Assembly: GCA_002011125.2 (NCBI GenBank)
Contig: MTMF02000009.1
Span: forward strand, 1,320,989 to 1,384,988
Reading direction: 5' to 3'
From: Candidatus Hydrothermarchaeum profundi
GTDB lineage: Archaea > Hydrothermarchaeota > Hydrothermarchaeia > Hydrothermarchaeales > Hydrothermarchaeaceae
DNA: 64,000 nucleotides
The position numbers and the translations under genes were made by a program. Every line of letters begins with the position of its first letter. Within the stretch, counting starts at the first letter, position 1. Under the pieces are notes generated by a model that was not told the origin of the DNA, searched no databases, and saw only the letters and a program-made list of their open reading frames with translations. Shown here piece by piece: positions 1 to 56,258 of the stretch.

Positions 1-279
1 GAGTCCTCTACTTAAAATAATTGGAGTAACGACTTCCGTAAAACCTATCGATGTAAGTAAGGATACCAGTTTTGATTCAATTTTTCGTAGATCGGGTCTC
101 TTTTTATAACTCCGAAGAAGTTCAAGTCTTTCCTTGTTTTTGGTTGTAAGCCTATAACTGATTTTCTTGAAAACCTCTTCCCTTTCCTCGCTTGATTTAA
201 ATTTGAGTATAAGCTCTTCCTCTTCCAGCATTAGTTCTTTAAGCCGTTGTTTTTGAGCATCTGTAAAAGTTAAATCCAT
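1..279 (-). CDS. pylSc: Pyrrolysyl-tRNA synthetase catalytic (C-terminal) subunit, 5' part only (runs off window)
   Basis: Manual translation from ATG at 279: MDLTFTDAQKQRLKEL...KRPDLRKIESKLVSLLTSIGFTEVVTPIILSRGL, matching the PylSc/delta-N PylRS N-terminus (xTDAQxQRLxE ... GFxEVxTPI); adjacent to pylSn and tRNA-Pyl; absent from ORF track. Confidence 0.93.
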   Translation of the reverse strand, partial: MDLTFTDAQKQRLKELMLEEEELILKFKSSEEREEVFKKISYRLTTKNKERLELLRSYKKRPDLRKIESKLVSLLTSIGFTEVVTPIILSRGL

Positions 280-294
280 TTCTATGTCCCTTCC

Positions 295-579
295 TTAGGA
301 TTTCTTACCAGCAAATCTCTTCAACTTCCAATCAGGTATTTTGCATTTCTTGCAAGGAGTTATGTATCTTCTTTGCCGTAGCCATCTAGCCCTCCTACTA
401 TTCTTCGAGTTCCTTCCTCTAGAGACAGCATTGCAGTGCGTTCTTACAATAATAAAAGATCCTCTTTCTTCGATTTCTTTAACTCCATGTAAAGTACCTT
501 TTTTAGATACCCACAGATTTATTTTTTTTACAAGATCTAACAACGGAACACGTTTATCGAAAATATCTTTCTTGCTCAT
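295..579 (-). CDS. pylSn: Pyrrolysyl-tRNA synthetase N-terminal tRNA-binding domain protein
   Basis: Motifs LWVSKKGTLHGVK, THC, RNSKNSRRARWLR, CKKCKIPDWKL typical of PylSn; ATG at 579 (alternative GTG 588). Confidence 0.95.
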   Translation of the reverse strand: MSKKDIFDKRVPLLDLVKKINLWVSKKGTLHGVKEIEERGSFIIVRTHCNAVSRGRNSKNSRRARWLRQRRYITPCKKCKIPDWKLKRFAGKKS

Positions 580-595
580 TTGAATCACATATTAG

Positions 596-664
596 CGGAG
601 GGCCCGAGAGTCGAACCCGGCTGCATGGAGTTAGAGTCCATGCGGTCTCCCCGACCTGCCCTCC
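596..664 (-). tRNA. pylT: tRNA-Pyl, anticodon CUA
   Basis: GGAGGGC-A-GGTC-GGGGA-GACC-G-CATGGA-CT[CTA]AC-TCCATG-CAG-CCGGG-TTCGACT-CTCGG-GCCCTCC-G: one nt between acceptor and D stems, 5-nt D loop, 6-bp anticodon stem, 3-nt variable loop, G73; CCA not encoded. Confidence 0.97.
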
Positions 665-702: not shown

Positions 703-719
703 GATATTTAAATTTTTGG
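703..719 (-). promoter_or_regulatory. Putative BRE/TATA promoter of pylT-pylSn-pylSc
   Basis: CCAAAAA-TTTAAATA on minus strand ~40 nt upstream of the tRNA 5' end. Confidence 0.55.
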
Positions 720-822: not shown

Positions 823-1830
823 ATGGATGTAGTGGATCGTTTTTTTAATGCACTTAAGGGTAAGGAGGTGGATAGGCCTCCGGTAACATGTGCTAATCAG
901 ACGGCTACAGTTGAGCAGATGGAGAAAGTTGGAGTATTTTGGCCTGAAGCACATAAAGATGCAGAGAAAATGGCTGTTTTAGCAGCTCAGGCATGGGAGC
1001 AACTAGGGCTGGAGGTTGTTGGTGTTCCTTTTTGCCAGACAGTTGAGGCTGAGGTTTTGGGATGTGAAATTAAGTGGAGTGATAAGAAGGACGCTATTCC
1101 CAGCGTACCTTTCGAGGGTTATGCCAGTCCAGATGATGTCACGGTTCCTGAGAACCTTCTGGAACAAGGAAGGATTCCTGTAGTCTTTAAGGCTTTGGAG
1201 ATTTTGAGGGAGAAATATGGTGAGCAAGTGCCAATCATGGGCCACGTTAATGGGCCTTTTAGCCTTGCGTCACATCTTACAGATCCTAGCAAGATGATGA
1301 AACTTATTCTCACGAAGCCGGATGTTGTTCCAGAGTTCTGTCGTATTTCAGTAGATGTTATTTCAGAGTATGCTAATGCAATGTATGATCATGGAGCCGA
1401 TGTGGTAGTTATAGAGGATATGATCGCAAGCGTTGACCTATTAGGTCCAAAGTTTTATGAAGACTTTAGTTTTCCTTTTGAGAAAGAGCTTGCAAGCCGT
1501 CTCAAGGGACCATCGATTTTGCACATTTGTGGAAATGCTACTTCAGTATTAGACAACATGATCGCTACAGGTTCTGATGGTATTAGTATTGATAGTAAAG
1601 TTGATGCCAGTTTAGCGGTTGAAAAGAGTAGGGGAAAATGTGCGGTGCTAGGGAATGTAGATGCATTAGTATTACTAAATGGCACTGTAGATGAGATTCA
1701 AAAAGAGACGATGAAGTCGATTGAAGCCAATGTTGACCTCGTTGCGCCGGCTTGTGCGATTTCTCCTCTTAATAGTAATAAAAATATCAAAGCTATGGTG
1801 GACACCGTAGTTGAATATGGGGGTAAGTGA
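823..1830 (+). CDS. mtbA: Methylcobamide:CoM methyltransferase MtbA/MtaA family (URO-D fold)
   Basis: DRPPV..QTATVEQM, PFCQTVEAEVLG, Zn motif LHICG and C-terminal APAC. Confidence 0.85.
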   Translation: MDVVDRFFNALKGKEVDRPPVTCANQTATVEQMEKVGVFWPEAHKDAEKMAVLAAQAWEQLGLEVVGVPFCQTVEAEVLGCEIKWSDKKDAIPSVPFEGYASPDDVTVPENLLEQGRIPVVFKALEILREKYGEQVPIMGHVNGPFSLASHLTDPSKMMKLILTKPDVVPEFCRISVDVISEYANAMYDHGADVVVIEDMIASVDLLGPKFYEDFSFPFEKELASRLKGPSILHICGNATSVLDNMIATGSDGISIDSKVDASLAVEKSRGKCAVLGNVDALVLLNGTVDEIQKETMKSIEANVDLVAPACAISPLNSNKNIKAMVDTVVEYGGK

Positions 1831-1986
1831 TTTAGTGTAATGATGACTACAGTTATGTGTCCCCCCCTTCCTCTTTTTTTATTCTTTAAAAAATGATATG
1901 AAAGCCTTCTTTTGTTAACTATTTAGGTAATATTCGTTACCCAAAAAAATAGTGATATATATACCTTTTACAACCTATAAGATTTC

Positions 1987-2670
1987 ATGCACATAATGGA
2001 AGGATTTTTACCGGGACCTTGGTGGTACTTGTGGTTCGTCTTCTCTGTACCAGTTGTCGGTTATGGGCTATGGAGAATGAAAAAGGTTGTTGAGGAGAAT
2101 CCTAATGTCAAAATATTACTTGCTTTAGCTGGCGCTTTTGTATTCGTGCTATCTTCGCTAAAACTTCCATCTGTTACAGGCTCTTGTTCACATCCCACGG
2201 GTACCGGGCTTAGTGTTATTCTATTCGGTCCGAGCGTAACAGCATTACTGTCAAGTATAGTACTTCTATATCAGGCTCTACTCCTTGCTCATGGAGGATT
2301 AACAACATGGGGCGCTAATGTTGCAAGTATGGGCATATTGGGGCCTCTCGTTGGCTGGTTAGTTTTTATTGCCTCTAGAAAAGTAAATCTAAATATGAAT
2401 CTAGCAGTATTCTTAACAGCTGCGGTCGCTGACCTAGCTACTTATGTAGTAACATCGATTCAACTAGCAGTCGCTTTTCCTGCAGCTACTGGAGGTGTAT
2501 TAACAAGTTTCAAGGCTTTTTTTGTAATCTTTGCTGTAACTCAAGTTCCTCTTGCGATAGTAGAGGGGCTTGTAACGGTAGTAATATTCAAATATCTTGT
2601 AGAATTACGAAGCGACCTTTTGGTGCATATGAATGTAATAAAACCAGCTGAGGAGGTGAGTACTGAGTGA
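1987..2670 (+). CDS. cbiM: Cobalt ECF transporter substrate component
   Basis: MHIMEGFLP N-terminus, SCSHPTG, AHGGLTT. Confidence 0.96.
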   Translation: MHIMEGFLPGPWWYLWFVFSVPVVGYGLWRMKKVVEENPNVKILLALAGAFVFVLSSLKLPSVTGSCSHPTGTGLSVILFGPSVTALLSSIVLLYQALLLAHGGLTTWGANVASMGILGPLVGWLVFIASRKVNLNMNLAVFLTAAVADLATYVVTSIQLAVAFPAATGGVLTSFKAFFVIFAVTQVPLAIVEGLVTVVIFKYLVELRSDLLVHMNVIKPAEEVSTE

Positions 2671-2954
2671 AGACTCCTATTATCTTTCTTCTTATACTCG
2701 TTGTTTTATTGGTACCTTTTATAATTAATGAGAATGCAGAATGGGGGGGCGCGGATGCTCAAGCAGAAGTAGCGATATCGGAGTTTACTGGGGGAACATA
2801 TGAGCCTTGGTTCAGTCCTATATGGGAGCCTCCTAGCGGGGAAATTGAAAGCCTTCTCTTTTCTCTACAAGCTGCACTGGGTGCAATTATAGTTGGATAC
2901 TTTATTGGGTACCATAAAGGTAAAAACTCAGTTGAAGAGGTTCAGGCGAGGTGA
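2667..2954 (+). CDS. cbiN: Cobalt ECF transporter component
   Basis: WGGAD, YEPWFSPIWEPPSGEIESLLFSLQAALGA. Confidence 0.96.
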   Translation: MKTPIIFLLILVVLLVPFIINENAEWGGADAQAEVAISEFTGGTYEPWFSPIWEPPSGEIESLLFSLQAALGAIIVGYFIGYHKGKNSVEEVQAR

Positions 2955-2961
2955 AAAATAG

Positions 2962-3753
2962 ATGCATGTACATCATCCCTTTGACATTTATACATACAAT
3001 AATGCCTTAAAAAGAGTACCTCCCCACTTTAAAGTATTAGTCTCTTTGGTTGCATTGCTTATAGTAGTAGCTTCTCCCTCCTTTGTGGCGCCTATCGCAA
3101 TTTTTGGTCTAATGTACTTTTTGACTGTGGTGAAGGCTAAGATCCCTAATAAAGTTTATCTAAAAGCGTTAACTGCTCCTTTGTTATTTACTATTCCCAC
3201 CCTCCCGCTTATGGCTTTCTTCTTTGGTGGGGGTGATGTATTATTCACAGTAAATATCTTGGGCTTTAGTCTTGCGGCTACTAGAGACGGGTTTAACTTA
3301 GCCCTCTTAGTTGCTTCACGGGTTATAGCGGGTAGTGCAAGCCTATTCTTCTTGGCTTTTACTACTCCTATGACTGAGATTTTTGGTGTAATGAGAGCCC
3401 TTAAATTCCCATCCCTTTTTGTCGAAATCGCTATGATGATATATCGATACATCTTCGTACTTATAGAAGAAGCAGAACAAATGATTTTTGCGCAAAATGT
3501 GAGACTCGGGTATAACACTTATAAGAGGAGTTATGAGTCTTTTGGACTATTAGTTAGCAATCTCTTTATAAGGTCTTGGCAGAAAGGTGAGCGAATTTTT
3601 AGAGCATTAGAAGCCCGGGGATATGAGGGGCAATTTGTTTTCTCTGATCAATCGCAACAAAAAATTACTTTTTTGCCTTTGTCTATATTGGGGGCTATAG
3701 GCATAGGTCTTGTTTTATTGGCGTACTACACTAGGGGGCTCACAATTTTTTAA
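2962..3753 (+). CDS. cbiQ: Cobalt ECF transporter T component
   Basis: Membrane protein with YRYIFVL, AQxxRLG and EARG motifs; operon context. Confidence 0.93.
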   Translation: MHVHHPFDIYTYNNALKRVPPHFKVLVSLVALLIVVASPSFVAPIAIFGLMYFLTVVKAKIPNKVYLKALTAPLLFTIPTLPLMAFFFGGGDVLFTVNILGFSLAATRDGFNLALLVASRVIAGSASLFFLAFTTPMTEIFGVMRALKFPSLFVEIAMMIYRYIFVLIEEAEQMIFAQNVRLGYNTYKRSYESFGLLVSNLFIRSWQKGERIFRALEARGYEGQFVFSDQSQQKITFLPLSILGAIGIGLVLLAYYTRGLTIF

Positions 3754-3763
3754 GGGATTGAAA

Positions 3764-5113
3764 ATGGAAGCTATTATAGCTACGAGATCACTGGACTACG
3801 TTTACCCAGATGGTACAAAGGCGTTGAAGGATATCAACGTTTCTATAGAGAGAGGGCTTAAAGTAGCTTTTATTGGTCCAAATGGAGCTGGGAAATCGAC
3901 TTTTCTGTTGCATCTCAATGGTATTTTAAGGCCTACTAGAGGGGAAGTTTTTATTGAGGGGAAGCCTCTAAAGTACGATAAGCAATCTTTAAAAAAGGTT
4001 AGGCAGAAGGTGGGTATGGTATTTCAAAACCCTGACGACCAACTATTCGCTCCTCAAGTATGGCAAGATGTGGCTTTTGGTCCGAGGAACATAGGGCTAC
4101 CTGAAAGTGAGGTAAGGGAAAGAGTTGACAAAGCATTGAAAATGGTTGGAATAGAACATCTCGCAGAGAAACCTCCTCATTTCTTGAGTGTAGGGCAAAA
4201 AAAGCGGGCAGCTATTGCTGGAATATTAGCTATGGATCCAGAGATCCTCGTATTAGACGAGCCTCTTAGCCATCTAGACCCTCAGGGTAGAAATGAACTT
4301 ATAGAAATCCTAGATGATCTAAGCTTCCTAGGTAAAACTATTCTCGTTGCAACTCATAGTGTAGAGTTCGCCTATTTTTGGGCGGATTACATATATGTAT
4401 TAATTTCTGGGACTATAAAATCTAGTGGAACTCCAGATGAAATTTTCAACGATTCAGAATTATTAAGTTCTGCCATGTTAGAGTCTCCAACACTTGTGGA
4501 GATTTATAATGAGCTTAAGGATAGAAAGTCGATATTAGGGAAAAAGACCCCAAAAAGCCGTCTTGACCTTATAAGCATGTTAGATGTGCCATTCTTAAAG
4601 TATATCGAGGCGCCTGAGGGAATAAGAGAAGGAGACACTGTGGAGCTAGCAATTGAAAATGGAAATCTTAAAATTCTTGGTGTGGCAGACTCTTCGTCAG
4701 ATAATAATTTAGGTGAAATAGTTGAGATAGTTAACGGAGAGTTAGCCGCTGTGAAAATACTGAGTCCAGGAGGTATAAAAAGAAGAGGAAAGATATTTAT
4801 CTGTAGTGTTGATTCCTTAGAAAAATCTAAGTTATTTGAGTTCCTAGATAATAATGATATTAAACATATAGGAGCAAAGGGTACCAGAGCGAAGCTATAT
4901 GCGCGTAGGGAAAATATACCTATGGATATTAAGAGAGATGTCATTAATGAAACAATGTTAAAAGCGCTTTCCGGTAAAAAGGTGCTACTGATTGTGAGTG
5001 ATGGAATGGTTGAAGCTACAAGAAAACTGTTAGAAGATTGTATAAAAGAGAATGGTTATGATCTCTCGATAGACATTCTTGCACGGGAATTAAAAGGGGA
5101 CCAGGTAGGCTAA
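3764..5113 (+). CDS. cbiO: Cobalt ECF ATPase with C-terminal extension
   Basis: GPNGAGKS, FQNPDDQLF, LSVGQKKR, LDEP; likely ATG 3764. Confidence 0.92.
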   Translation: MEAIIATRSLDYVYPDGTKALKDINVSIERGLKVAFIGPNGAGKSTFLLHLNGILRPTRGEVFIEGKPLKYDKQSLKKVRQKVGMVFQNPDDQLFAPQVWQDVAFGPRNIGLPESEVRERVDKALKMVGIEHLAEKPPHFLSVGQKKRAAIAGILAMDPEILVLDEPLSHLDPQGRNELIEILDDLSFLGKTILVATHSVEFAYFWADYIYVLISGTIKSSGTPDEIFNDSELLSSAMLESPTLVEIYNELKDRKSILGKKTPKSRLDLISMLDVPFLKYIEAPEGIREGDTVELAIENGNLKILGVADSSSDNNLGEIVEIVNGELAAVKILSPGGIKRRGKIFICSVDSLEKSKLFEFLDNNDIKHIGAKGTRAKLYARRENIPMDIKRDVINETMLKALSGKKVLLIVSDGMVEATRKLLEDCIKENGYDLSIDILARELKGDQVG

Positions 5114-5164
5114 AAGCCTATGAATCTGGGAGGAGAGGTAATCTATAGAAAGCGAGGTGAAAAA

Positions 5165-5569
5165 ATGATAGGCGTTGTTGTAGTTGGGCATGGAAGTAGA
5201 CTACCGCAGAGTAAGGGTATCTACGAGGAGATTGGTAGGAAGGTCGCAGAGAAGTCGGGTTTCGAGGTTAAAGTCGGTTATATGAAACACTGGCGTCCTA
5301 CTCTTGTTGAAGCCATAAACTCGTTTATAAAAGAGGGTAAGAAAAAAATAGTTATCGTGCCTGTTTTCCTTCTCCCCGGATTACATGTTTCTGAAGATAT
5401 TCCAGTCTTACTTGGACTAAAAGAAGGAGAATCGCCCGAGTTTGGCTATGAAAGAATAAATGTCCCAGATGATGTTGAAATCTTCTATGCTAATAGTTTG
5501 GGAGCGGATGAGAGACTGGCCGATATCGTGGTTGATAGGATACATGAGTCCTTGAATGGATCTAAATAA
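5165..5569 (+). CDS. cbiX: Sirohydrochlorin cobalt/nickel chelatase, short form (CbiXS/CfbA-like)
   Basis: VGHGSR, FLLPGLHVSEDIP, LGADERL; SD GAGGTG before ATG 5165. Confidence 0.9.
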   Translation: MIGVVVVGHGSRLPQSKGIYEEIGRKVAEKSGFEVKVGYMKHWRPTLVEAINSFIKEGKKKIVIVPVFLLPGLHVSEDIPVLLGLKEGESPEFGYERINVPDDVEIFYANSLGADERLADIVVDRIHESLNGSK

Positions 5570-5624
5570 GTTAAATAATAGAGGTAGCAAGCATTATAAA
5601 TAGTTTGCAGAGAGGTGATATAAA

Positions 5625-6332
5625 GTGGATCTTTTTATCTTTATCTTCGCATCAATTTCAATTGCGGTACTTCATACGCTTGTTCCAGACCACTATTTAC
5701 CAATAGCTTTGTTGGCACAGGCGCAAAATTGGAGTCTGAGGAAGACAGCTTTGATAACCGGACTTGCAGGGATGGGACATGTAGCGACTTCTATAGTTAT
5801 AGGTATTTTAGCTATGGGGATTAGTATGCAATTTTCTGAAAACTTGGCTTCAAAGGCTGAGTTATTAACTAAGGGGATGCTAATATCTTTTGGTCTTTTA
5901 TATACCCTTTATGCAGTTAAGTCAGGTGGACATCTGCACTACCATCATTCTCACGGCGCTTCTGATGTCCATGAGCATAAGAAAAAAAACGGAATTGGAG
6001 TCACAGGTTATACTATGGCTCTTATCGTAGGGCTAATGCCCTGTGTGCCAGCGATACCAATATTTATTTCAGCAAGTTTAAAGAGCACATATTACGCTGC
6101 CTTATCTATGGTAGCGTTTGCGATTTTCACTTTATTAACAATGTATATTATGGTGCTTGTAAGTATCGCTCCAAAGAAATACGGCTTAATGCCACCTATA
6201 ATAAGGAGGAATATGGATATAATCTCTGGAATTATAATTTTTCTTACAGGCATCATCATCACGATATTTGACCTAAGAAATAAGAAGAGTCCCAAAAGAT
6301 TCTTAGTTGATAAAACGGAGGCTTATGTTTGA
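5625..6332 (+). CDS. His-rich Ni/Co permease (NiCoT/UreH/RcnA-like)
   Basis: LHTLVPDH, GHV, His-rich loop HLHYHHSHG..HEH, LMPC; multi-TM. Confidence 0.75.
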   Translation: MDLFIFIFASISIAVLHTLVPDHYLPIALLAQAQNWSLRKTALITGLAGMGHVATSIVIGILAMGISMQFSENLASKAELLTKGMLISFGLLYTLYAVKSGGHLHYHHSHGASDVHEHKKKNGIGVTGYTMALIVGLMPCVPAIPIFISASLKSTYYAALSMVAFAIFTLLTMYIMVLVSIAPKKYGLMPPIIRRNMDIISGIIIFLTGIIITIFDLRNKKSPKRFLVDKTEAYV

Positions 6333-6919
6333 AGGGAAAGGAAATAGAAGAAAAAAGCTTTGAGATTATAGAAGAGAGGCTTAAGAATTTTCCTTCGCCA
6401 GAGAGAGAGGTTATAAAAAGGATAGTTCATACCACCGCAGATTTTAGCTTAGCGGACTTAGTAGTGTTTCATAATGACCCAGTTCATAAAGGTATAGAGG
6501 CGATAAAGTCTAATAAGAGAATATTTACTGATGTGAGAATGGTCCAGGCAGGAATTACTCGGTACAAGGGTGAAGTAAAATGTCTCATCGATACTGAGGA
6601 GGTTAAATCATTTTCAGAGTCTTCTGGGAAAACTAGGGCAGCGTCAGCATTTCAGTTGGCTCGCGGAGAATTAGATGGAGCGATTATTGCAATAGGGAAT
6701 GCTCCAACAGCATTATTGGAAGTCTGCTCCCTTATTGAGGACGGTATTTCTCCTTCCCTTGTAGTTGGAACGCCGGTGGGGTTCGTAAGCGCCGAGGAAT
6801 CTAAAGAGAGAATATTACAATATGATGTTCCATCGATAGTGGTTAGAGGGAAGAGGGGGGGTAGCAATATCGCAGCAGCTATAATAAATGCGCTTATTAT
6901 TCTATCAGAGAAAGAATGA
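6329..6919 (+). CDS. cbiC: Cobalt-precorrin-8 methylmutase
   Basis: IEEKSFEII, RIVHTTAD, IGNAPTAL, PVGFV, GKRGGS. Confidence 0.95.
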   Translation: MKGKEIEEKSFEIIEERLKNFPSPEREVIKRIVHTTADFSLADLVVFHNDPVHKGIEAIKSNKRIFTDVRMVQAGITRYKGEVKCLIDTEEVKSFSESSGKTRAASAFQLARGELDGAIIAIGNAPTALLEVCSLIEDGISPSLVVGTPVGFVSAEESKERILQYDVPSIVVRGKRGGSNIAAAIINALIILSEKE

Positions 6920-8022
6920 AGCCGTATGTAATTAGAAAAGGTAAAGTCTTAAGAAGGGGTTTTACGACAGGAACGTATTCTGCCGCGGCAGCAAAGGCCG
7001 CAGTTAGCATGTTGTTTGGCGTCCCTATAGATACAGTAAAAGTAGAGTTACCTATTGGTGCAGAAGTTAAAATAAAGATTTCTAAAGCTTTTAAAGAAAA
7101 AGGCAAGGCTGTGTGTTGCGTCGTAAAAGATGCGGGAGATGACCCGGATGTTACTCATAAAGCAGAAATCTGTGTAAAAGCAAAAAAGATCAGTAAGGGC
7201 ATTGAATTAAAGGGAGGCGAGGGAGTAGGTATTGTCACTAAACCAGGATTACAAGTAAGGGTAGGAGAGCCTGCAATAAATCCAGTTCCAAGAAAAATGA
7301 TTTTTAATGAAATAAAGAAAGTATTGCCTAAAGGCGCTGGAGTTGAGGTTACAGTCTTTGTTCCTAAGGGCGAGGAGTTAGCTAAAAAAACAATGAACGA
7401 AAGGCTTGGGATAGTAGGGGGGATATCTATCCTTGGTACTACAGGTGTTGTGGAGCCTATGTCAGAAGAAGCATTTAAAGAATCATTAGTTCCTCAAATA
7501 GGCGTAGCGTTGGCTCAAGGATATAAAGAAGTAGTACTTACCCCTGGCCGAATAGGAGAAAAGAATGCTTTGAAGCTAGGTATACCGGAGGATGCTATAG
7601 TTCAAATGGGAAATTTCGTAGGCTTTATGCTTCGTGAATGTGCGAAGAGAGGAGTGGAGAAAGCCGTTCTTTTTGGGCATGTTGGAAAATTAACAAAAGT
7701 GGCAGCAGGATTTTTTAATACACATAGTAAGATCTCAGATTCGAGAATAGAGACTATAACGAGACATGCAATCAAGCTAGGTATAGAAGAAGATATTATA
7801 TGTATGGTAATGGATGCTAATACTGCTGAACATGCTCTTCAAATACTAAAGGATAAAAGTAAATTACATATTTTTGATTCTATAGCGGAAGAAGTGGTGA
7901 GAAAAGCAGTAGAATTCGCAGGAGGAAAAATGGAGATTGGTGCGGCGTTGCTTTCCTTGGATGGAGAGATTGTAGGGAAATATAACTTGGAGGCCTGTAG
8001 ATGGGGAAAATATATGTTATAG
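6916..8022 (+). CDS. cbiD: Cobalt-precorrin-5B C1-methyltransferase
   Basis: LRRGFTTGT, KDAGDDPDVTH, PAINPVPR, GGISILGTTG. Confidence 0.96.
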   Translation: MKPYVIRKGKVLRRGFTTGTYSAAAAKAAVSMLFGVPIDTVKVELPIGAEVKIKISKAFKEKGKAVCCVVKDAGDDPDVTHKAEICVKAKKISKGIELKGGEGVGIVTKPGLQVRVGEPAINPVPRKMIFNEIKKVLPKGAGVEVTVFVPKGEELAKKTMNERLGIVGGISILGTTGVVEPMSEEAFKESLVPQIGVALAQGYKEVVLTPGRIGEKNALKLGIPEDAIVQMGNFVGFMLRECAKRGVEKAVLFGHVGKLTKVAAGFFNTHSKISDSRIETITRHAIKLGIEEDIICMVMDANTAEHALQILKDKSKLHIFDSIAEEVVRKAVEFAGGKMEIGAALLSLDGEIVGKYNLEACRWGKYML

Positions 8023-9185
8023 GTACTGGTCCCGGATCGATAGATTATTTAACTCCTGCAGCAAGGAAGGCGGTAGAAAAAGCAGATGTTATCGTTGGAG
8101 GAAAGAATGCCCTGTCTCTATTCTCCTTTAATAAGCCTAATAAATTCATAGATAAAGAACTGCGGAGTGTTCTTGAATATATTTCAGATAATAGGGAAAA
8201 AAATATAGCAGTCTTAACCTCTGGAGACCCAGGATTTTATAGTATACTCGGGCTTTTGACTAAGAATTTTCCTAGGGAAGATATAGAAGTCATACCTGGA
8301 ATTAGCTCGGTTCAACTGTGCTTCGCTAAGTTAAAGGATAGCTGGCATGATGCGAGATTCATTAGTCTCCATGGACGTAATATTGAAAATTTATTGACTA
8401 TCCATGGCGAAAAAATCGTGATTTTAACAGATGAAGCTTCAAAGCCAGAGAAAATCGCTCAATATCTATTGGATAGAGGGATTAAAGGTAGAGCGTGGGT
8501 ATGTGATAGTCTCTGTCAGTCATCTGAGCGCATTATAGAATCAGATTTAAGGGGGATATCAAGCAAGAAGTTTTCTGGAAATGCTATAATGGTAGTTAAA
8601 CCCTCTATAGAGCGAAAATGGAGGCATCGTACTCCGGGTATACCGGACAAGCTCTTTGAAAAAGGCGGGTCTCCGATGACTAAGGAAGAAGTAAGGGTGA
8701 TAACAATATCTAAAGCGAGAATTAATAGGGATAGCGTAGTATATGACATAGGATCGGGTACTGGTTCTATAGCGATTGAGGCCGCGATACAAGCTGATAT
8801 GGGAAAAGTATATTCTATCGAAAAAAACCCTGAAAGGTGTAAGATAATTATGAAGAATATTCTGGCGTTTGGGCTTCCAAATATCGAGGTTGTGCAGGGA
8901 GAAGCTCCAGAGGTTATAGAGAGCCTTTCACCGGCGGATAGGATTATAGTGGGGGGTAGTGGTGGAAAAATAAGAGAAATCATAGAGGCTAGTATTACTA
9001 AACTCAAGAGAGATGGCGTGATAGTAATAAATGCATTTAAAGAAGAAACGATTAAAGAATCAACGAAAACTCTGAAAGACTTAAATTTAAATTACAATAT
9101 TACTACTGTTTCGATAGAAAGAATTCGCGGTGGAAGCGTTGCTAAATTAAATCCAATTTCTATAATAGATGCAAGGAGGCAATGA
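8001..9185 (+). CDS. cbiET: Fused cobalt-precorrin-7 C5-methyltransferase / C15-methyltransferase-decarboxylase
   Basis: N-term GTGPG, SGDPGFY, PGISS, SLHGR; C-term [16 protein letters not shown]. Confidence 0.93.
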
Positions 9186-9186
9186 A

Positions 9187-10245
9187 ATGAAGATAGAAGA
9201 TGTAGTTTCTAAGATTGGTCCCTTAAATGAAGAAGCTATGAAAAAAGCGAGGGATAGACAGGATAATCTCACAAAGCCTCAGGGAAGCCTAGGTAGACTT
9301 GAAGAGATATCCATTAGAATAGCAGGCGTCAAGGGTGAAGAAAGACCTAAAATTAAGAGAAAAGTGATCTTCACTGCGGCAGGAGACCATGGGGTAGTCG
9401 AAGAGGGAGTAAGTGCTTACCCCCAGGAAGTAACTCCGCAGATGGTTTTTAATTTCCTCTCAGGAGGAGCTGCGATAAATGTTTTGGCTAGACATGTTGG
9501 AGCGGATATTGTAGTAGTCGATATGGGTGTGGCATATGATTTTGAAGCTAATCCAAAACTGATAATTAAAAAAGTAGCTAAGGGCACTAAAAACATGGCT
9601 AAAGAGCCTGCGATGAGCAGAGAAGAAGCTATTAAAGCTATCGAAGGAGGGATAGAGGCTTTCGAAGAAGAATATACTAAAAATCCAATGGACATTATAG
9701 GTATAGGAGACATGGGCATAGGCAATACTACACCAAGTAGTGCTATTGCTGCCGTGATAACTGGAAAAAAGGTAAGCGAGGTAACAGGCAGAGGAACTGG
9801 AATCGATGACGAAGCACTTCAAAACAAAATAAGGGTAATTGAGAAGGCCATAGAAGTTAATAATCCTGACCCAAAAGATCCGCTAGACGTTCTCTCAAAG
9901 GTGGGCGGCTTTGAGATAGGAGGTTTGGCGGGTATCTGCCTAGCCGCTGCATCAAAGAGGGTGCCCGTCGTCATTGATGGTTTTATTGCGACTGCTGGAG
10001 CTTTAATTGCAGGAGAGATTGCACGTAAGGCACGTGATTACATGATAGCTGCGCATAAATCAGTAGAAATTGGGCATATTGCCATGCTGAATCACTTGGG
10101 GTTAACTCCGCTCATGGATCTCGATATGCGACTTGGAGAAGGTACAGGTGCGGCCCTCGGTATGTTTATAGTTGAAGCAAGTGTTAAAATACTGGACGAA
10201 ATGGCAACTTTCGCAGAGGCTGGAGTAAGCGAGAAGGAAAAGTGA
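9187..10245 (+). CDS. cobT: Nicotinate-nucleotide-dimethylbenzimidazole phosphoribosyltransferase (bacterial type)
   Basis: [40 protein letters not shown]. Confidence 0.96.
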
Positions 10246-10253
10246 TAGTTTAA

Positions 10254-10958
10254 ATGCCGGTAGGAAAACTTTATGGGGTAGGCCTTGGACCAGGAGACCC
10301 CAAGCTAATTACTATTAAAGCGAAGGAAATTTTAGAGGAGGTAGATGTAGTTTGTGCGCCTATATCGAAGGTAGGCAGGAGAAGCATTGCGCTAGAGATG
10401 GTTAAACCATACGTTAAGGGTAAAGAGATTTTAACTCTCCTGTTTCCAATGCACACCGACCCTGATATATTACGGCCTTATTGGGAGAAGGCAGGGGCTG
10501 AAATATGTAACAGGCTAAAAGAGGGGAAGGATGTAGCTTTTATTACTATAGGAGACCCCTCGTTTTATTCTACTTTTATTAATGTGATGGAAATAATAAG
10601 GGAAAGACAACGTGATGCAGAAATAATAACCATACCAGGGGTAGCTTCAATACTCGCGTGTTTCGCTGGTTTAAATGAGCCGCTCGTAGATAAGGATGAA
10701 AAACTCGCCGTCTTCCCTGCGGAATACGGCCTTGAGGAATTAGAAGAAATCTCAAAATTTTTTGATACAATAGTCCTAATGAAGGTTTCCAGGAGTTTTG
10801 ATAAGATTTATAAAAAACTTGATAAACTTGGACTCCTAGATAAAGCTGTATTAGTATCTAAGTGTGGTACACGAGATTTCTTTTCATCACCATTAAGAGA
10901 GGTAAAGGGAAAGGTGGATTTCCTATCCATGATCATTTTGAAGGGGTTAAGAGGATGA
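10254..10958 (+). CDS. cbiL: Cobalt-factor II C20-methyltransferase
   Basis: YGVGLGPGDP, FPM, IGDPSFYST, VLMKV. Confidence 0.92.
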   Translation: MPVGKLYGVGLGPGDPKLITIKAKEILEEVDVVCAPISKVGRRSIALEMVKPYVKGKEILTLLFPMHTDPDILRPYWEKAGAEICNRLKEGKDVAFITIGDPSFYSTFINVMEIIRERQRDAEIITIPGVASILACFAGLNEPLVDKDEKLAVFPAEYGLEELEEISKFFDTIVLMKVSRSFDKIYKKLDKLGLLDKAVLVSKCGTRDFFSSPLREVKGKVDFLSMIILKGLRG

Positions 10959-11707
10959 CAGTTTACATTGTCGGTGCAGGCCCGGGAGATCCGGAGCTTA
11001 TAACCCTCAAGGGTAAGAAGGTCATTGAAAAAGCAGACATTATAATCTATGCAGGATCGTTAGTAAATCAGAGGATTCTGGATTATGCAAGAACAGACGC
11101 AGAACGCTATAACAGTGCAGGTATGACTCTTGAAGAAATCCTCAAGGTAATATCGGAGGGTGTGAAAGAAGGAAAGTCGGTTGTACGTATCCATAGCGGC
11201 GACCCCAGTATATATGGAGCTATAGGAGAACAAATCCGAAGACTGGATGAGCTGGGCATCCAGTACGAGATAATTCCAGGGGTAAGCTCATTTTTAGCTG
11301 CAGCCGCCTCGCTTAAAAAAGAATATACCCTGCCGGGAGTTTCGCAGACCGTGATTATCACTAGGATGGGGGGGAGAACCAAGGTACCTAAAAAAGAAAG
11401 TTTGGGGGATTTAGCGAAACACCGGGCTAGTATGTGTATTTTCTTAAGTGCACAACTCGTTGAGAAGGTTACGGAGGAGTTAAAGAAAGGATATCCTGGA
11501 GATACTCCCGTTGCCGTAGTATATAAAGCCTCATGGGATGATGAGAAAATTATAATGACTAATCTCCAAGAGCTACCTAAAGCCGTTAAAGAATCGGGTA
11601 TAACTCGGACCGCTTTGATATTAATCGGAGAATTCCTACATACAATTGGGGAGGACTCAAAGCTTTATCATAAGGACTTTGAGCATGGTTATAGGAGGAA
11701 GAAATGA
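10955..11707 (+). CDS. cbiF: Cobalt-precorrin-4 C11-methyltransferase
   Basis: VGAGPGDPELIT, YAGSLV, RIHSGDPSIYG, SQTVIITR; ATG 10955. Confidence 0.95.
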   Translation: MTVYIVGAGPGDPELITLKGKKVIEKADIIIYAGSLVNQRILDYARTDAERYNSAGMTLEEILKVISEGVKEGKSVVRIHSGDPSIYGAIGEQIRRLDELGIQYEIIPGVSSFLAAAASLKKEYTLPGVSQTVIITRMGGRTKVPKKESLGDLAKHRASMCIFLSAQLVEKVTEELKKGYPGDTPVAVVYKASWDDEKIIMTNLQELPKAVKESGITRTALILIGEFLHTIGEDSKLYHKDFEHGYRRKK

Positions 11708-12702
11708 AGATTGCGGTCTTATCTATAACGAAGGGAGGTAAAAAAACAGCGGAAAGGGTTTCTTCTGCTTTACAGGAGCACAATGTCGAATTATTGGAGC
11801 CCTCCTCTATTAGCAGGGAGGTGGCACGAATATTCGGCAAGTATGATGCCCTCGTGTTTGTTATGGCTACGGGAATCGTAGTTAGAGCTATATCTAGACA
11901 TATTAAAGATAAGAGAACGGATCCTGCTGTGGTTGTGTTAGATGAGAAAGGAAAATTTGTAATCAGTCTCCTTTCAGGACATCTAGGAGGAGCAAATGAA
12001 TTAGCGAGACATATAGCAGAAAAATTGAATGCTGTACCTGTGATTACTACCGCTACCGACGTACTTGGACTCCCTTCGGTAGAGGAGATAGCTAAAGGTA
12101 ATGATCTTGAGATTGAAGACTATGTAGATGTGAAAAAAGTAAATGCTGCAATTGTTAATGGAAAAAAAGTTGGTATTGCGACCGATCTATCTTCACTTTC
12201 TAATCTCTCAGATAGATTCCCATTAATAAGACTACAAGATGTTGGCAATACGGATTTGGATGTATTGATTGTAATCACAAACAAAAAAATAGACATAGAG
12301 AAACCATGTGTTTTTTTGAGACCAAAGAATCTAATCGTTGGTATAGGCGCAAGAAGGGGTATAAGTAAAGAGAAGGTATTAGCGGCAATACACAGGGCAT
12401 TTGATCAAGGTAAGTTGAGTATCCATAGTCTGAAGGCTGTATGTACTCCAGAGTTTAAAGCTAAAGAGAAGGGAATCATAGAAGCATCTTTAGAGCTGGG
12501 AGTGCCCTTGATAAAAGTTTCGATTGATGAGATAAAAAGTGTGGAGGATCTTTTTGAGGCATCAGAATTTGTTGCGAGTAAAGTAGGATTAAGGGCGGTA
12601 AGTGAACCTTGTGCTATGTTAGGAGGGAAGTCGGCTAAGTTGATAAGGAAAAAAATGAAATCTAATGGTGTTACTGTAGCGGTAGCGGAGGAAGAACTGT
12701 GA
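11704..12702 (+). CDS. cbiG: Cobalt-precorrin-5A hydrolase
   Basis: MATGIVVR, DKRTDPAVVV, LLSGHLGGAN, VITTATD, VSEPCA. Confidence 0.95.
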   Translation: MKIAVLSITKGGKKTAERVSSALQEHNVELLEPSSISREVARIFGKYDALVFVMATGIVVRAISRHIKDKRTDPAVVVLDEKGKFVISLLSGHLGGANELARHIAEKLNAVPVITTATDVLGLPSVEEIAKGNDLEIEDYVDVKKVNAAIVNGKKVGIATDLSSLSNLSDRFPLIRLQDVGNTDLDVLIVITNKKIDIEKPCVFLRPKNLIVGIGARRGISKEKVLAAIHRAFDQGKLSIHSLKAVCTPEFKAKEKGIIEASLELGVPLIKVSIDEIKSVEDLFEASEFVASKVGLRAVSEPCAMLGGKSAKLIRKKMKSNGVTVAVAEEEL

Positions 12703-13430
12703 TAGGAAAAGTTATACTAGTTGGGATCGGCCCTGGAGCTAAAGAGCATATGAGCCTCAGAGCACTTAAGGCTTTAGAAGAGGCAGAGGTGATTATAGGG
12801 TATAAAACTTACTTGGACCTTGTGAAAGAGCTTATTGAGGGAAAGGAGATCATTTCTAAGAGCATGAAACAGGAGATGGAGAGAGCAAAGCTTGCAGTAG
12901 AGGAGGCAAAAAAAGGCAAAAAAGTAGCGGTAGTTAGCAGTGGAGATCCTGGAATATATGCGATGGGGAGCGCTGTCTTCGAGTATCTTATGGAAACAGG
13001 TAGTGAAGTTGACGTTGAGGTAGTTCCAGGTATTACTGCAGCAACAGCTGCCGCAGCTCGTTTAGGAGCGCCGTTGGGTAATGATTTTGCGGTTATTAGC
13101 CTTAGCGACTTATTAACGCCTTGGGAAGTCATTGTAAAGAGAGTAGAAGAAGCGGTTAAAGGGGACTTTGTACTAGTATTATACAACCCCAAAAGTAAGG
13201 GTAGAGTAAAGCAGATAGAAAAAGCAGCGGAGATTATAATGAAGTATAGAGGGGAAGAAACGCCCGTTGGGATAGTGAAGAATGCTATGAGGCCAGGTGA
13301 GGAGTTAGTCATAACTACTTTAGGGGAGATGTTAAATTATCCTATTGACATGCTCACTACCGTTATTGTAGGTAATAAAGAAACTTTCATTTATAAAGGT
13401 AAGATGATAACTCCGAGAGGTTATAAATGA
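12699..13430 (+). CDS. cbiH: Cobalt-factor III C17-methyltransferase
   Basis: VGIGPG, SSGDPGIY, DFAVISLSDLLTPW, YNPKS, TPRGY. Confidence 0.95.
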   Translation: MIGKVILVGIGPGAKEHMSLRALKALEEAEVIIGYKTYLDLVKELIEGKEIISKSMKQEMERAKLAVEEAKKGKKVAVVSSGDPGIYAMGSAVFEYLMETGSEVDVEVVPGITAATAAAARLGAPLGNDFAVISLSDLLTPWEVIVKRVEEAVKGDFVLVLYNPKSKGRVKQIEKAAEIIMKYRGEETPVGIVKNAMRPGEELVITTLGEMLNYPIDMLTTVIVGNKETFIYKGKMITPRGYK

Positions 13431-14206
13431 TAATGGTCATATCCGGAACCAAGGATAGTAGAGAAATTATTAGACTTATCAAGGAAAATGGATATAAAGT
13501 TCTGGCAACCTCAGTTACAGATTACGGCTCGGAACTTACTAGAGAGTCAGGAGCAGACATTGTTTTAACTGGCGTCTTGGATAGATCAGGGATAGTAAAT
13601 ACGATAGTAAAGAACAATATAGAAGCGGTCATAGATGCTACTCACCCCTTCGCGGTTGAAGCTAGTAGAAATGCTATTCAGGCATGCAAAGAAACGGGAA
13701 TAAGTTATTTGAGATTTGAAAGAAAACCTTCACCTCTTCCGGATGATCCTTTGATCCATTATTCGACAGGATTTGAGGAAGCTGGGCGTATAGCTTCTGG
13801 ACTTGGAGATAATATCTTCTATACAGCAGGTGTAAAAGGTCTTGCTCGTTTTTTAAAAGGCGTAGGGGATATAAACAAGAAAAATATTATCGTGCGGGTT
13901 ATACCTGAGTGTGAATCTATTAGAAAGTGTTTGGAGTGCGGGATACCTATGGCAAACATAATTGCAGTTCAGGGTCCTTTTAGCATGGAATTAAATAAAG
14001 CGATGTTAAGGGAATATAGGAGCGATGTCATTGTTACCAAAGAAAGCGGTAATGTAGGTGGAACTAATACGAAAGTGCAAGCAGCTTTTAAAATAGGGAT
14101 ACCTATAGTTGTTATAAGTCGACCCAGAGTTTCTTATCCAGAGATTGTAAGTACTCCTAAAGAAGTGATAGAATGGATATCGAGAATTTCGTATCAAAAG
14201 AGATAA
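13427..14206 (+). CDS. cbiJ: Cobalt-precorrin-6A reductase
   Basis: IDATHPFA, QGPFS, VTKESG. Confidence 0.94.
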   Translation: MIMVISGTKDSREIIRLIKENGYKVLATSVTDYGSELTRESGADIVLTGVLDRSGIVNTIVKNNIEAVIDATHPFAVEASRNAIQACKETGISYLRFERKPSPLPDDPLIHYSTGFEEAGRIASGLGDNIFYTAGVKGLARFLKGVGDINKKNIIVRVIPECESIRKCLECGIPMANIIAVQGPFSMELNKAMLREYRSDVIVTKESGNVGGTNTKVQAAFKIGIPIVVISRPRVSYPEIVSTPKEVIEWISRISYQKR

Positions 14207-15282
14207 GGAAATCTAAGAAGGCAGTCCACGGAGGAGATGTCTGGGAGCTTTTTAAAAGTGGAAAGCGAGAGATACTCGACTTCAGTTCAAATGTTAATCC
14301 ACTAGGCCCTCCAAGGGGCGCTATTAAGGCAATAAGGGACTCGCTGTGGGACATTCCTTTCTACCCTGAGAGTGATTCTGATAGGCTGAAGGACGCTATA
14401 GGCGATTATCTAAAAGTGAATAAGGATAACTTAATAATAGGTAATGGGTCAACAGAGATAATCAAAATTTTTTGCGATGTTTTTCTTAGAAAGGGAGTAA
14501 ATGTAATAATAGTCGAGCCTACTTTTTCGGAGTACCAAGTTTATTGCGGATTCAACGGAGCTACTATTAAGAGAGTATATGCAAGAAGTGAGAGCGACTT
14601 TGCATTCCCACACAGAGATCTACTAAAGAATATTGATTCCTCGGTTAGAGCTGTTTTCTTATGCTCGCCTAATAATCCCACCGGAATGCTGGTGGAGACG
14701 GAAACGCTGGAAAATATCATCAAAACATCTGAAAAAAACAACTGTTTAGTATTTCTCGATGAAGCGTATATAGAATTTTCTGACTCAGAAGGATATGTTA
14801 ATATGGCAGTAGAATATGATAATTTGTTGATTCTAAGATCCTTGACGAAATTTTATTCTTTACCAGGATTACGTATAGGTTATGGAGTTGGAAACCAGAA
14901 ACTAATAAAGATTTTAGAGAAAGGGAAGATCCCCTGGAATGTGAATACTCTTGCTCAAGCAGCTGCAATAGCATCAATTAAAGATAACGCTTTCATAAAA
15001 AAGTCAAAGAGTTATATAAGAAAAGAGAGATTATTCATGAGAAGAGAGCTGGAAAAGTTAGGTATTAAGGTCTATGGAGATGAATCAAATTTCCTGTTGC
15101 TAGACTTCCACAAATATGGCCTCAAAGCAAGGGATATAAAATCAAAATTGATAGAAAAAGGTATCCTCATTAGAGACTGCAGCTCTTTTAATGGACTCGA
15201 TGAATATTTTGTTAGAGTGAGCGTAAGAAAGAGGAAAGAGAATATCAAGCTAATCGGAGAGTTAAAAAATCTCATAAGATAA
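14173..15282 (+). CDS. cobD: Threonine-phosphate decarboxylase (PLP, class I/II)
   Basis: HGG, LDFSSNVNPLG, PNNPTG, DEAY, RSLTKFYSLPGLRIG, IRDC. Confidence 0.9.
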   Translation: MDIENFVSKEIRKSKKAVHGGDVWELFKSGKREILDFSSNVNPLGPPRGAIKAIRDSLWDIPFYPESDSDRLKDAIGDYLKVNKDNLIIGNGSTEIIKIFCDVFLRKGVNVIIVEPTFSEYQVYCGFNGATIKRVYARSESDFAFPHRDLLKNIDSSVRAVFLCSPNNPTGMLVETETLENIIKTSEKNNCLVFLDEAYIEFSDSEGYVNMAVEYDNLLILRSLTKFYSLPGLRIGYGVGNQKLIKILEKGKIPWNVNTLAQAAAIASIKDNAFIKKSKSYIRKERLFMRRELEKLGIKVYGDESNFLLLDFHKYGLKARDIKSKLIEKGILIRDCSSFNGLDEYFVRVSVRKRKENIKLIGELKNLIR

Positions 15283-15399: not shown

Positions 15400-15756
15400 G
15401 TGGCGAATGAATACATTTCGGTAGGAGTATTCGCTGTGGTAGGGATAATATTTCCTTTCATCCTGCTAACGCTTTCTCGTCTCCTCAGACCTTCTAAACC
15501 TGAAAAAGAGAAGTATATGACATATGAGTGCAGTATCCCACCTATTGGGGAAGCATGGATACAGCACGATATCCAATATTATATGTTTGCTCTTTTATTC
15601 GCGGTCTTTGATGTAGAAACAGTTTTCCTCTATCCATGGGCCGTGGTATTTCCGAATCTAGGATTGTTAGCAGTAATTGAAATGCTTGTATTCATTATTG
15701 TGCTGGTTGTTGGTTTGGCATATGCTTGGAAGAAGGAGGCTTTGAGGTGGATGTGA
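15400..15756 (+). CDS. fpoA: Complex I-like (Fpo/Nuo) subunit A
   Basis: [22 protein letters not shown]. Confidence 0.93.
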
Positions 15757-16211
15757 TTACAACAACAATGGAAAAGGTCATGCTAAATTGGGCAAGGGCA
15801 AAATCCCTGTGGCCCATGACTTTTGGACTTGCATGTTGTGCTATTGAAATGATGGCCGCTGGCACATCTAGATGGGACACTTTTGAAAGATTTGGAATGC
15901 TATTCAGAGCGTCTCCCAGACAGTCTGATCTTATGATTGTAGCTGGCACAGTTACAAAGAAAATGGCTCCTAATGTCAAAAGACTTTATGATCAAATGCC
16001 TGAGCCTAAATACGTGATAGCTATGGGTGAATGTGCTATATCTGGGGGTCCATATTATGACTCTTACTCAGTTGTAGATGGTGTTGATAAAGTAATACCT
16101 GTCGATGTCTATGTTCCGGGATGCCCACCACGACCTGAAATGTTGATTTATGGAATCCTAGAACTAAGAGAAAAAATCAAAAAGGGAGAGATAAAGAGGC
16201 ACAGGAAATGA
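15747..16211 (+). CDS. fpoB: Complex I-like subunit B
   Basis: [24 protein letters not shown]; probable GTG start at 15747 after GGAGG. Confidence 0.95.
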
Positions 16212-16705
16212 GTCCAGATGAAACAAAGGAAGCAGAAGAGAAACCGGAACTTAGAAGTGAAATATTGGAAAAAGTAAGGGAAAAACTGTCGGATTACATA
16301 TTGGATTCAAAAGTTCAGCGAGAAAGAAGGCTGCTAATTAGCGTAGATGGTAAGAATATACTAGAAGTCTGTTCTGCATTGAATGAAATAGGGTTTGATC
16401 ATCTCTCATGTATAGCTACGGTGGAATACGATGATAGATTTGAGGTGGTTTACCATCTATGGTCGTATTCCAATAATAACTTATTAACCGTAAAGGCAAG
16501 ACTACAAAAGGAATCCCCTAGGATAGACTCCGTTACCTCCATTTGGAAAAGTGCTGACTGGCATGAAAGAGAGGCATATGATATGATGGGTATAGTATTT
16601 GAAGGACACCCGGATCTAAGGAGGATTTTAACTCCAGATGATTTTGAGGGTCATCCTCTCAGAAAAGATTTTCAGCTAACTGAAAGGCCCTGGTTTGAGG
16701 AATAA
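16208..16705 (+). CDS. fpoC: Complex I-like subunit C
   Basis: [32 protein letters not shown]. Confidence 0.95.
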
Positions 16706-16707
16706 AA

Positions 16708-17097
16708 ATGAAAGTCAAAGATGTTATGAAACGTAACGTAGTGAGCGTAGATGTTGATTCCAGCCTCGCTGATGTGAAGAAAAAAATGATTGAAAATAAT
16801 GTCAACTTTGTAGTTGTTAAGGCAGGCGGGGAGATCGTCGGAGTTATTTCAGATACTGATATACTAGCGTATGCCACAAAGGGTAAGAGGCTGGAGGACC
16901 TTAAGGCTGAAAAATATATGACTGCTTGCAAACTTGAAGGTACTAATCCCTGTCTTCAAGTCTTTGAAGACGACCCCTTAGAAGAAGCTGCCACTATAAT
17001 GGCTGCTACTGGAGTGCATCATCTATTAGTGTGGGGTAAGAGCGGTTATCCTGCGGGAGTTATAACTTCTGATGATATTCTTAAGGTGGTAAAGTAA
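16708..17097 (+). CDS. Stand-alone CBS-pair protein inside the fpo-like operon
   Basis: VKDVM, GVISDTDIL, GVITSDDIL; 2-nt and 1-nt gaps to neighbours. Confidence 0.88.
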   Translation: MKVKDVMKRNVVSVDVDSSLADVKKKMIENNVNFVVVKAGGEIVGVISDTDILAYATKGKRLEDLKAEKYMTACKLEGTNPCLQVFEDDPLEEAATIMAATGVHHLLVWGKSGYPAGVITSDDILKVVK

Positions 17098-17098
17098 A

Positions 17099-19242: not shown

Positions 19243-19249
19243 TGAAAAA

Positions 19250-20461: not shown

Positions 20462-20462
20462 A

Positions 20463-52891: not shown

Positions 52892-53083
52892 CTCATAGTA
52901 TTATATATTGCAGGTTTCCTAGATATCTATTTACCCCTACTCACTTTTAATATACTAATCCTAAATTTTTATTATTATATATCTCTTCATGTTTAACCAT
53001 TTATGCTTTTTCTTTAGTGTCAATATATAAAAGAGCTATAAATCAATATAGCTTTCAATAATCAGTACAACAAGTGAGATCAT

Positions 53084-54738: not shown

Positions 54739-54769
54739 TTTAGGTTTTTATAAAGGATTAACTCTAAAA

Positions 54770-56226: not shown

Positions 56227-56258
56227 AGAATTTTTACAGATAACATAATAAGCAACGT

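Follow-up and report, generated by a model that had tools for sequence, protein, structure and literature searches.

Does Candidatus Hydrothermarchaeum profundi decode UAG as pyrrolysine (Pyl) with a pyrrolysyl-tRNA synthetase (PylRS) that is made as two polypeptides? The question is raised by the left edge of a 64,000-nucleotide stretch of contig MTMF02000009.1 (hereafter the window, meaning this whole stretch), where a first-pass annotation had placed an amber tRNA(CUA), a free-standing PylSn and the start of PylSc. Read on the minus strand from position 664 down to 1, the window begins with three consecutive genes in the order pylT, 15 nt, pylSn, 15 nt, pylSc. All three identifications are borne out, by ARAGORN and a covariance model, by TIGR03912 and by TIGR02367, respectively, and the claimed order holds. 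Judging from the sequence, we consider it very probable that these genes open a functional archaeal pyrrolysine-decoding cassette whose synthetase consists of two polypeptides. In the proposed scheme, pylT would give an amber-suppressor tRNA with the compact architecture of the pyrrolysine tRNA (tRNAPyl). By analogy with their homologues, the class II catalytic subunit PylSc would activate pyrrolysine and charge tRNAPyl, and the small zinc-binding protein PylSn would grip the T and variable loops of the tRNA and bring it to PylSc. Once charged, the tRNA would decode the UAG codons of methylamine methyltransferase genes located in other parts of the genome, and the neighbouring MtaA/MtbA, cobalt-uptake and cobamide genes would serve the same methyl-transfer pathway.

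A tRNAPyl gene and two synthetase genes

The pylT gene (595-664, minus strand), identified by ARAGORN, its fold and a covariance model, encodes a tRNA-Pyl with the anticodon CUA. Its cloverleaf folds with -37.5 kcal/mol (z = -3.34), and none of 200 shuffles folds as well. The covariance model was built from 43 bacterial tRNAPyl, with the window excluded; of the 70 bacterial loci described in the next section, 47 carry such genes according to ARAGORN, 48 tRNA(CUA) genes in all, and those of L011, L019, L021 and L032 and the first copy in L050 were omitted. It matches the window at 593-664 (minus strand) with 77.7 bits (E 3.6e-19), has no second match in the 64-kb window at E <= 10, and leaves the four ordinary tRNAs of the window unmatched. 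The general tRNA model of Rfam scores pylT below its gathering score, and the best Rfam match is a sub-threshold one to tRNA-Sec (22.7 bits, where the gathering score is 47).

Aligned to the model, pylT has a 7-bp acceptor stem, a 4-bp D stem and a 6-bp anticodon stem, with a single A between the acceptor and D stems; its D loop has 5 nt (GGGGA), its variable loop 3 nt (CAG), and its T loop reads UUCGACU. The minimum-free-energy fold suggests another arrangement, in which the stem has 7 bp and the variable loop 2 nt. The discriminator is G73, as in all 43 bacterial tRNAPyl of the model, and the first pair is G1:C72, both of which we take to be identity elements of tRNAPyl. The CAG variable loop recurs in 31 of the 43 bacterial sequences; CCA, encoded in 40 of the 43, is not encoded in pylT. 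The elbow looks canonical, with GG in the D loop and a UUCGA T loop, and neither TTCGA nor TTCAA occurs in any of the 43. In the first-described tRNAPyl, the D loop typically has no G18G19 and the T loop no T54-Psi55-C56. We nevertheless file pylT as a tRNAPyl because of its model score and its context, and it has all four features of the compact tRNAPyl architecture described by Borrel 2014 (PMC3941956), namely a 6-bp anticodon stem, a 3-nt variable loop, a 5-nt D loop and a 1-base link between acceptor and D stems.

The pylSn gene (295-579, minus strand) encodes the free-standing N-terminal, tRNA-binding subunit of PylRS, with 94 amino acids (aa) counted from the ATG at 579 and a TAA stop at 295-297. 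An alternative GTG start at 588 would give 97 aa; the entry in the protein collection (P0001) is the 94-aa form. The protein matches TIGR03912 (PylS_Nterm) with 97.4 bits over profile positions 1-84 of 89 (cut-off 51.15), and Pfam gives no match at E <= 0.01. Residues 8-92 align with residues 10-93 of PDB 5ud5, the PylRS N-terminal domain (E 1.7e-12). Within this region H31, C49, C76 and C79 are invariant in a 21-sequence alignment and fall on the one His and three Cys of 5ud5, presumably the zinc ligands of the solved domain. An exhaustive phmmer search with PylSn returned 60 representatives at E <= 0.001, among which the query alone lies below 1e-30 and no other exceeds 50% identity; a word-based search added one relative, P0002 (114 aa, 73% identical). 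Another entry of the phmmer list, P0028 (678 aa, 13 matched stretches), was rejected as a PylSn, its matches reflecting a tandem 52-residue repeat. The PylSn tree (96 rows, 111 columns) is unresolved, and the window PylSn groups in it with P0002 alone. In Guo 2022 (PMC9630628), PylSn is described as touching the T loop and the variable loop, with recruitment of tRNAPyl as its presumed role.

The pylSc gene enters the window with its 5' part (1-279, minus strand), comprising 93 of 277 codons from the ATG at 279, and continues past the window start. This 93-residue fragment matches TIGR02367 (PylS_Cterm) with 32.8 bits over profile positions 1-55 of 242, below the cut-off of 178.15 because just the gene start lies in the window. 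A sub-threshold Pfam match of the fragment to Fe-S_biosyn (18.1 bits against a threshold of 26.3) was taken as chance. The full-length protein is P0064 of the protein collection (277 aa, 100% identical across the 93 window residues), the one longer protein to which a search led and one marked in the collection as encoded by the window, which covers the whole TIGR02367 profile (1-242 of 242) with 294.6 bits. Its best matches in the PDB are 26 PylRS sequences (E 1e-79 to 1e-53), headed by the PylSc chains 3dsq and 2zni (E 1e-79); next come, we presume, PylRS chains of the stand-alone archaeal kind, and after them catalytic domains of the Methanosarcina type. Nine PylSc/PylRS sequences, one fused enzyme included, show no variation at the residues of class II motif 2 (R151, E153 and E162-N167) and motif 3 (G241, G243, G245, E247 and R248). 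The first-pass annotation had named a truncated pylSc, or one without class II motifs, together with a genome that lacks pylBCD and TAG-containing mtmB/mtbB/mttB, as what would speak against it; P0064 is full-length, with motifs 2 and 3 intact.

Kinship and junction of the split synthetase

Bacterial loci for comparison were collected by scanning a genome collection with a PylSn pattern, C[KPE][KDL]Cx[IV]P[DGK]WK, taken from an 8-sequence alignment. The scan gave 78 stretches, 71 of which were confirmed; they fall in 70 loci, all with bacterial titles, whose PylSn are 36-51% identical to that of the window, and no archaeal locus is among the 70 returned. The genes for tRNAPyl, PylSn, PylSc, PylB, PylC and PylD were located in them by ARAGORN and by hidden Markov models (HMMs) seeded from open reading frames (ORFs) verified with NCBIfam. 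Since the loci were chosen via one PylSn motif, the fractions hold for this sample rather than for bacteria at large. In it, pylSn directly follows pylD in 18/70 loci, nine of the 70 have the order Sc-B-C-D-Sn, pylT directly precedes pylSn in 16/70, and pylSc directly precedes pylSn in 4/70. The adjacent order of the window, pylSn directly before pylSc, is found in 6/70 (L009, L035, L049, L053, L055 and L069), and the full order pylT-pylSn-pylSc in two (L009 and L055); L053 reads pylSn-pylSc-pylB-pylC-pylD from its contig end, and in L055, too, pylB, pylC and pylD come after pylSc. The general bacterial orders given by Borrel et al. 2014 (PMC3941956) are pylTScBCDSn and pylSnScBCD. The claim that bacterial pylSn usually stands after pylBCD therefore captures one arrangement, as the loci with pylSn after pylD show, and misses several others. 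The bacterial orders of the sample are far more varied than the usual two and include pylB-pylC-pylSc-pylD-pylT-pylSn (L010, L011 and L016) and pylSc-pylD-pylT-pylB-pylC-...-pylSn (L017-L021), and L050 carries two tRNAPyl genes.

Relatives of the window PylSc were searched for in the protein collection, which gave 2278 hits at E <= 1e-20. Among the best 120 of these 2278, the closest are P0065 (72% identical) and P0066 (69%), all others are at most 58% identical, and the named relatives are bacterial but for one. The split is conserved in a relative that is about 70% identical, with PylSn P0002 and PylSc P0066 (285 aa) as separate proteins; we assign these two to one relative because the longest contig given for each has 130,457 bases. 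Two PylSc trees were computed, a check that the first-pass annotation had suggested: a quick one with 86 of the 167 available sequences (every one of the 47 locus-derived sequences with 240 aa or more, plus 39 from the 120 best hits), and a careful one with 41 rows under LG+C20+F+G4. The window PylSc, P0065 and P0066 form a clade in both, a firm trio with support of 100/96 in the careful tree. Its sister in both is the Halanaerobiaceae PylSc of L053, a weaker placement with moderate support (78/89) and a long branch for L053. Bacteria-like PylSc with a similar placement are described for two split-PylRS archaea in Guo 2022 (PMC9630628).

This kinship raises the question of whether the pyl genes are bacterial DNA, either misassembled onto an archaeal contig or very recently transferred from a bacterium; all 70 loci with the PylSn pattern, and all but one of the named PylSc relatives among the best 120 of 2278, are indeed bacterial. 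Yet nothing outside the small clade is more than 51% identical to the PylSn or, among those best 120, more than 58% identical to the PylSc, and pylT lacks the encoded CCA that 40 of 43 bacterial tRNAPyl carry. The GC content of the genes, overall and at third codon positions (GC3), matches the rest of the window: the GC3 of the two protein genes is 0.33 and 0.29, compared with 0.29-0.38 in 12 other window genes, and their composition is native to the window. The contigs given for the genes, moreover, reach 149,032 and 1,917,514 bases, and bacteria-like PylSc are known from split-PylRS archaea (Guo 2022, PMC9630628). We regard a misassembly or very recent transfer as extremely unlikely.

The junction of the two synthetase genes poses a different question. 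Sequence and frame arithmetic place a spacer of 15 nt (280-294, minus strand) from the pylSn stop to the pylSc start, and the two genes share a reading frame with just TAA and five codons between them (279-297, minus strand). They could thus be read as one fused pylS broken by a nonsense mutation or a sequencing error, and Guo 2022 (PMC9630628) notes that split forms could become fused, and fused ones split, through very small changes. However, pylSc has its own ATG, and the spacer holds a Shine-Dalgarno-like GGAAGGGA ahead of it; nothing corresponds to the linker of 40-155 residues found in fused enzymes. The relative mentioned above has separate PylSn and PylSc too, and the window PylSc groups with the split-type bacterial PylSc (50-53% identity), compared with 36% identity to the fused P0054. 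A shared frame has a chance of 1 in 3, and none of the five non-overlapping adjacent bacterial pylSn-pylSc pairs (gaps of 1, 2, 47, 100 and 113 nt) is in frame. A broken fused gene is accordingly very unlikely in our estimate, and we retain the reading of two genuine subunit genes.

Two observations concern the same junction. Altering one codon there would join the two into a fused PylRS whose linker is very short. Programmed read-through of the stop between pylSn and pylSc, which would yield a fused enzyme, was considered and rejected: the stop is TAA, not TAG, and the linker is absent, and the idea is further ruled out by the out-of-frame state of the five bacterial pairs.

The spacers measure 15 nt each and no T-run terminator is present between pylT, pylSn and pylSc, so the three genes probably form a single transcription unit and would be co-transcribed. 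A promoter driving the one transcript may lie near TTTAAATA (705-712, minus strand), a candidate archaeal TATA box that a motif search places 41 nt before the 5' end of the mature pylT product. It stays a candidate because the motif TTTAWATA is not enriched in the window, where 28 sites compare with 19.6 expected and 5 of 100 shuffles reach as many.

The surroundings of the cassette and the proposed use of UAG

The genomic context of the pyl genes is archaeal. The window has as archaeal markers ribosomal protein S19e, eIF-6, prefoldin, an arCOG04150 KH protein, LonB, Rio1 and HdrC/HdrB, and it further carries TyrRS, ValRS and an 11-subunit Nuo/Fpo-like complex. The protein Atlas clusters nearest to the window ValRS and LonB are 81-100% Archaea, with neighbours mostly from Nitrososphaerota/Thermoproteota for ValRS and from Thermoplasmatota/Methanobacteriota for LonB. 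These two indications disagree on the phylum, and Archaea is the level kept from them. With the families verified and the flanking genes archaeal, the description of the locus as an archaeal split-synthetase pyrrolysine cassette stands.

Divergent from pylT is a gene for an MtaA/MtbA-family methylcobamide:coenzyme M methyltransferase (823-1830, plus strand; NF004889 with 374 bits against a cut-off of 244, and Pfam URO-D with 267.8 bits), which stays below the cut-offs of both the MtaA and the MtbA equivalog model. It is probably linked to the cassette in function, through methyl transfer downstream of Pyl-dependent methylamine methyltransferases, and lies outside the charging system. This gene is followed by cbiM/N/Q/O, a CbiX/CfbA-type chelatase and a run of cobamide-synthesis genes to about 15.3 kb (823-15282, plus strand) that includes cbiC, cbiD, a fused cbiE/T, cobT, cbiL, cbiF, cbiG, cbiH, cbiJ and a CobD/HisC-like aminotransferase. 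That an MtaA/MtbA gene and 13 kb of clustered cobalt-uptake and cobamide genes adjoin the pyl genes fits Pyl-dependent methylamine metabolism. The CbiO of this cluster bears a C-terminal extension of about 190 aa. Between the chelatase gene and cbiC (5625-6332, plus strand) lies a gene for a 235-aa membrane protein with a His-rich stretch, a candidate metal transporter that has no NCBIfam match at 1e-5 and no Pfam match at 1e-8.

The stop codons of the 68 non-overlapping window ORFs of at least 100 aa are TAA in 33 cases, TGA in 30 and TAG in 5. Read-through of the five TAG-ending ORFs would add 7-28 codons, with an overlap of at most 52 nt, and no homology-supported internal TAG occurs among the window ORFs. 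In this small sample the counts are compatible with TAG avoidance or with Genetic Code 34, in which all TAG is read as Pyl (preprint by Kivenson et al. 2024), and indicate nothing firm. Under that code one would expect internal TAG with homology support in many genes, and read-through that causes no large out-of-frame overlaps.

A working cassette needs to be weighed here against a relic or partial system, in which the charging genes are present while pyrrolysine is not made, for want of pylBCD, or UAG does not stand for Pyl. Such a state would fit the window, which shows no pylBCD or Pyl-containing genes, as these would lie outside it, and incomplete or defective Pyl systems are reported from some archaea, MSBL1 for instance (Mukai 2017, PMC5424206). 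On the other hand, the three genes are intact with their catalytic and zinc-binding residues conserved, the split pair is retained in a relative about 70% identical, and TAG is the rarest stop (5 of 68 ORFs). The nearest locus with visible context, L053, continues from pylSn and pylSc into pylB, pylC and pylD. We judge a relic to be unlikely, and none of the three rivals (relic, broken fused gene or bacterial DNA) is favoured over a working split cassette.

Several points nonetheless weigh against that preferred reading. The pylB, pylC and pylD genes, which we infer downstream of pylSc, would lie left of window position 1, outside the DNA read, and just 93 of the 277 pylSc codons are in the window, the remainder resting on the stored protein P0064. 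The family scans covered 73 window proteins (3 + 40 + 30), and among these there is no TAG-interrupted methylamine methyltransferase (mtmB, mtbB or mttB) or corrinoid protein; neither is one found among the window ORFs read through TAG. pylT departs from the textbook tRNAPyl in its D-loop GG and canonical UUCGA T loop, the absence of which we do not treat as defining. No Shine-Dalgarno site precedes pylSn, and the TATA-like motif by itself is not significant, just its position near pylT being suggestive of a promoter.

The remainder of the window holds several features apart from the pyl genes. A Nuo/Fpo-like operon (A, B, C, D, H, I, ..., L, M, N) occupies 15400-25408 (plus strand), with a CBS-domain gene (16708-17097) between nuoC and nuoD; the best model for its L subunit is FpoL, which it matches below cut-off (702 against 1050 bits). 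The part from 52000 to 60000 has the lowest GC of the window (0.356-0.362) and contains a tRNA-Ser(CGA) at 54654-54738 (minus strand), a serine recombinase gene at 55493-56167 (minus strand; Pfam Resolvase, and phrog_95 integrase with 189 bits) and several ORFs without a family, and it may be an integrated element. Two neighbouring genes of the GH130 (mannoside phosphorylase) family lie at 62599-63998 (minus strand), the second of which exceeds the window end.

Relation to known pyrrolysine systems

How new is a split PylRS in an archaeon? Guo 2022 (PMC9630628) distinguishes three PylRS classes and counts the class with PylSn plus PylSc in 7 of 75 archaeal genomes, namely two of Asgard archaea, that of Euryarchaeote JdFR-19, and one each of Hydrothermarchaeota, Bathyarchaeota, Korarchaeota and Verstraetearchaeota. 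These seven genomes agree with the remark in the first-pass annotation that split forms are reported in some archaea. The review PMC9499178 gives the class a section of its own, Mukai et al. 2017 (PMC5424206) report pylSn plus pylSc in Ca. Methanomethylicus, and Kivenson et al. 2024 (bioRxiv 10.1101/2024.09.30.615893) report tests in E. coli of split pairs from the JDFR19 genus. The window may come from one of the seven published genomes or represent a further lineage. The same annotation had presented the placement of Sn first as unusual, which overstates its rarity: pylSn and pylSc are close together in all PylSn plus PylSc archaea covered by Guo 2022 (PMC9630628), often overlapping or a few nt apart, and pylSnScBCD is among the bacterial orders of Borrel 2014 (PMC3941956).

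Both the split PylRS in an archaeon and the Sn-first order have therefore already been described, and the window is a further member of a described class; its cassette leaves current understanding unchanged. Its contribution is a further intact case for a small set, one in which the gene boundaries are clean, PylSc is available in full length and the tRNAPyl is slightly atypical. Cases of this kind bear on two debates, over the priority of split or fused PylRS and over the direction in which the cassette passed between archaea and bacteria, and they supply new PylRS/tRNA pairs for genetic code expansion. It is conceivable, if rather doubtful, that the window and its two relatives of about 70% identity make up a separate archaeal split-PylRS lineage beside the Halanaerobiales and stand near an intermediate in the history of the system. 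The near-intermediate status would rest on the canonical T loop (UUCGA) and D-loop GG of the tRNAPyl and on the in-frame pylSn and pylSc, one stop away from fusion. Were this true, the lineage would bear on the ancestry of split versus fused PylRS and on the direction of transfer between archaea and bacteria, and could provide genetic code expansion with one more orthogonal PylRS/tRNA pair.

Set beside the known systems, the cassette shares features with each of them. With the DeltaPylSn PylRS of Methanomassiliicoccales and Methermicoccus it has in common a stand-alone PylSc of about 275 aa, that of Methermicoccus being 51% identical. Genomes of this group have no PylSn, whereas the window has one, together with a regular 6-bp anticodon stem in place of the broken anticodon stem that Borrel 2014 (PMC3941956) describes for the tRNAPyl of the group. 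With the fused PylRS of Methanosarcinaceae (pylTSBCD) it shares the same two domains in the same N-to-C order directly after pylT. It differs from those enzymes in having a stop and a 15-nt spacer where they have a linker, given as 40-155 residues in Guo 2022 (PMC9630628), and its PylSc is 36% identical to the fused representative P0054.

The resemblance to bacterial split systems, among them the pylTScBCDSn clusters of the Desulfitobacterium type, lies in the two subunits, in a PylSc whose full-length identity is 40-53% to 45 of 46 bacterial PylSc and 39% to the other, in the PylSc chain 3dsq/2zni as best solved-structure match, and in the gene order of L009 and L055. Unlike the bacterial clusters, the window cassette has an archaeal host and a tRNA without encoded CCA and with a UUCGA T loop; most bacterial loci, moreover, separate pylSn from pylSc, the adjacent Sn-first order being confined to 6 of the 70. 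Compared with the archaeal PylSn plus PylSc class, the window proteins are at most 73% (PylSn) and 72% (PylSc, among the best 120 of 2278) identical to entries of the collections searched, and they share with that class the separate, directly adjacent genes and a PylSc that is nearest to bacterial PylSc.

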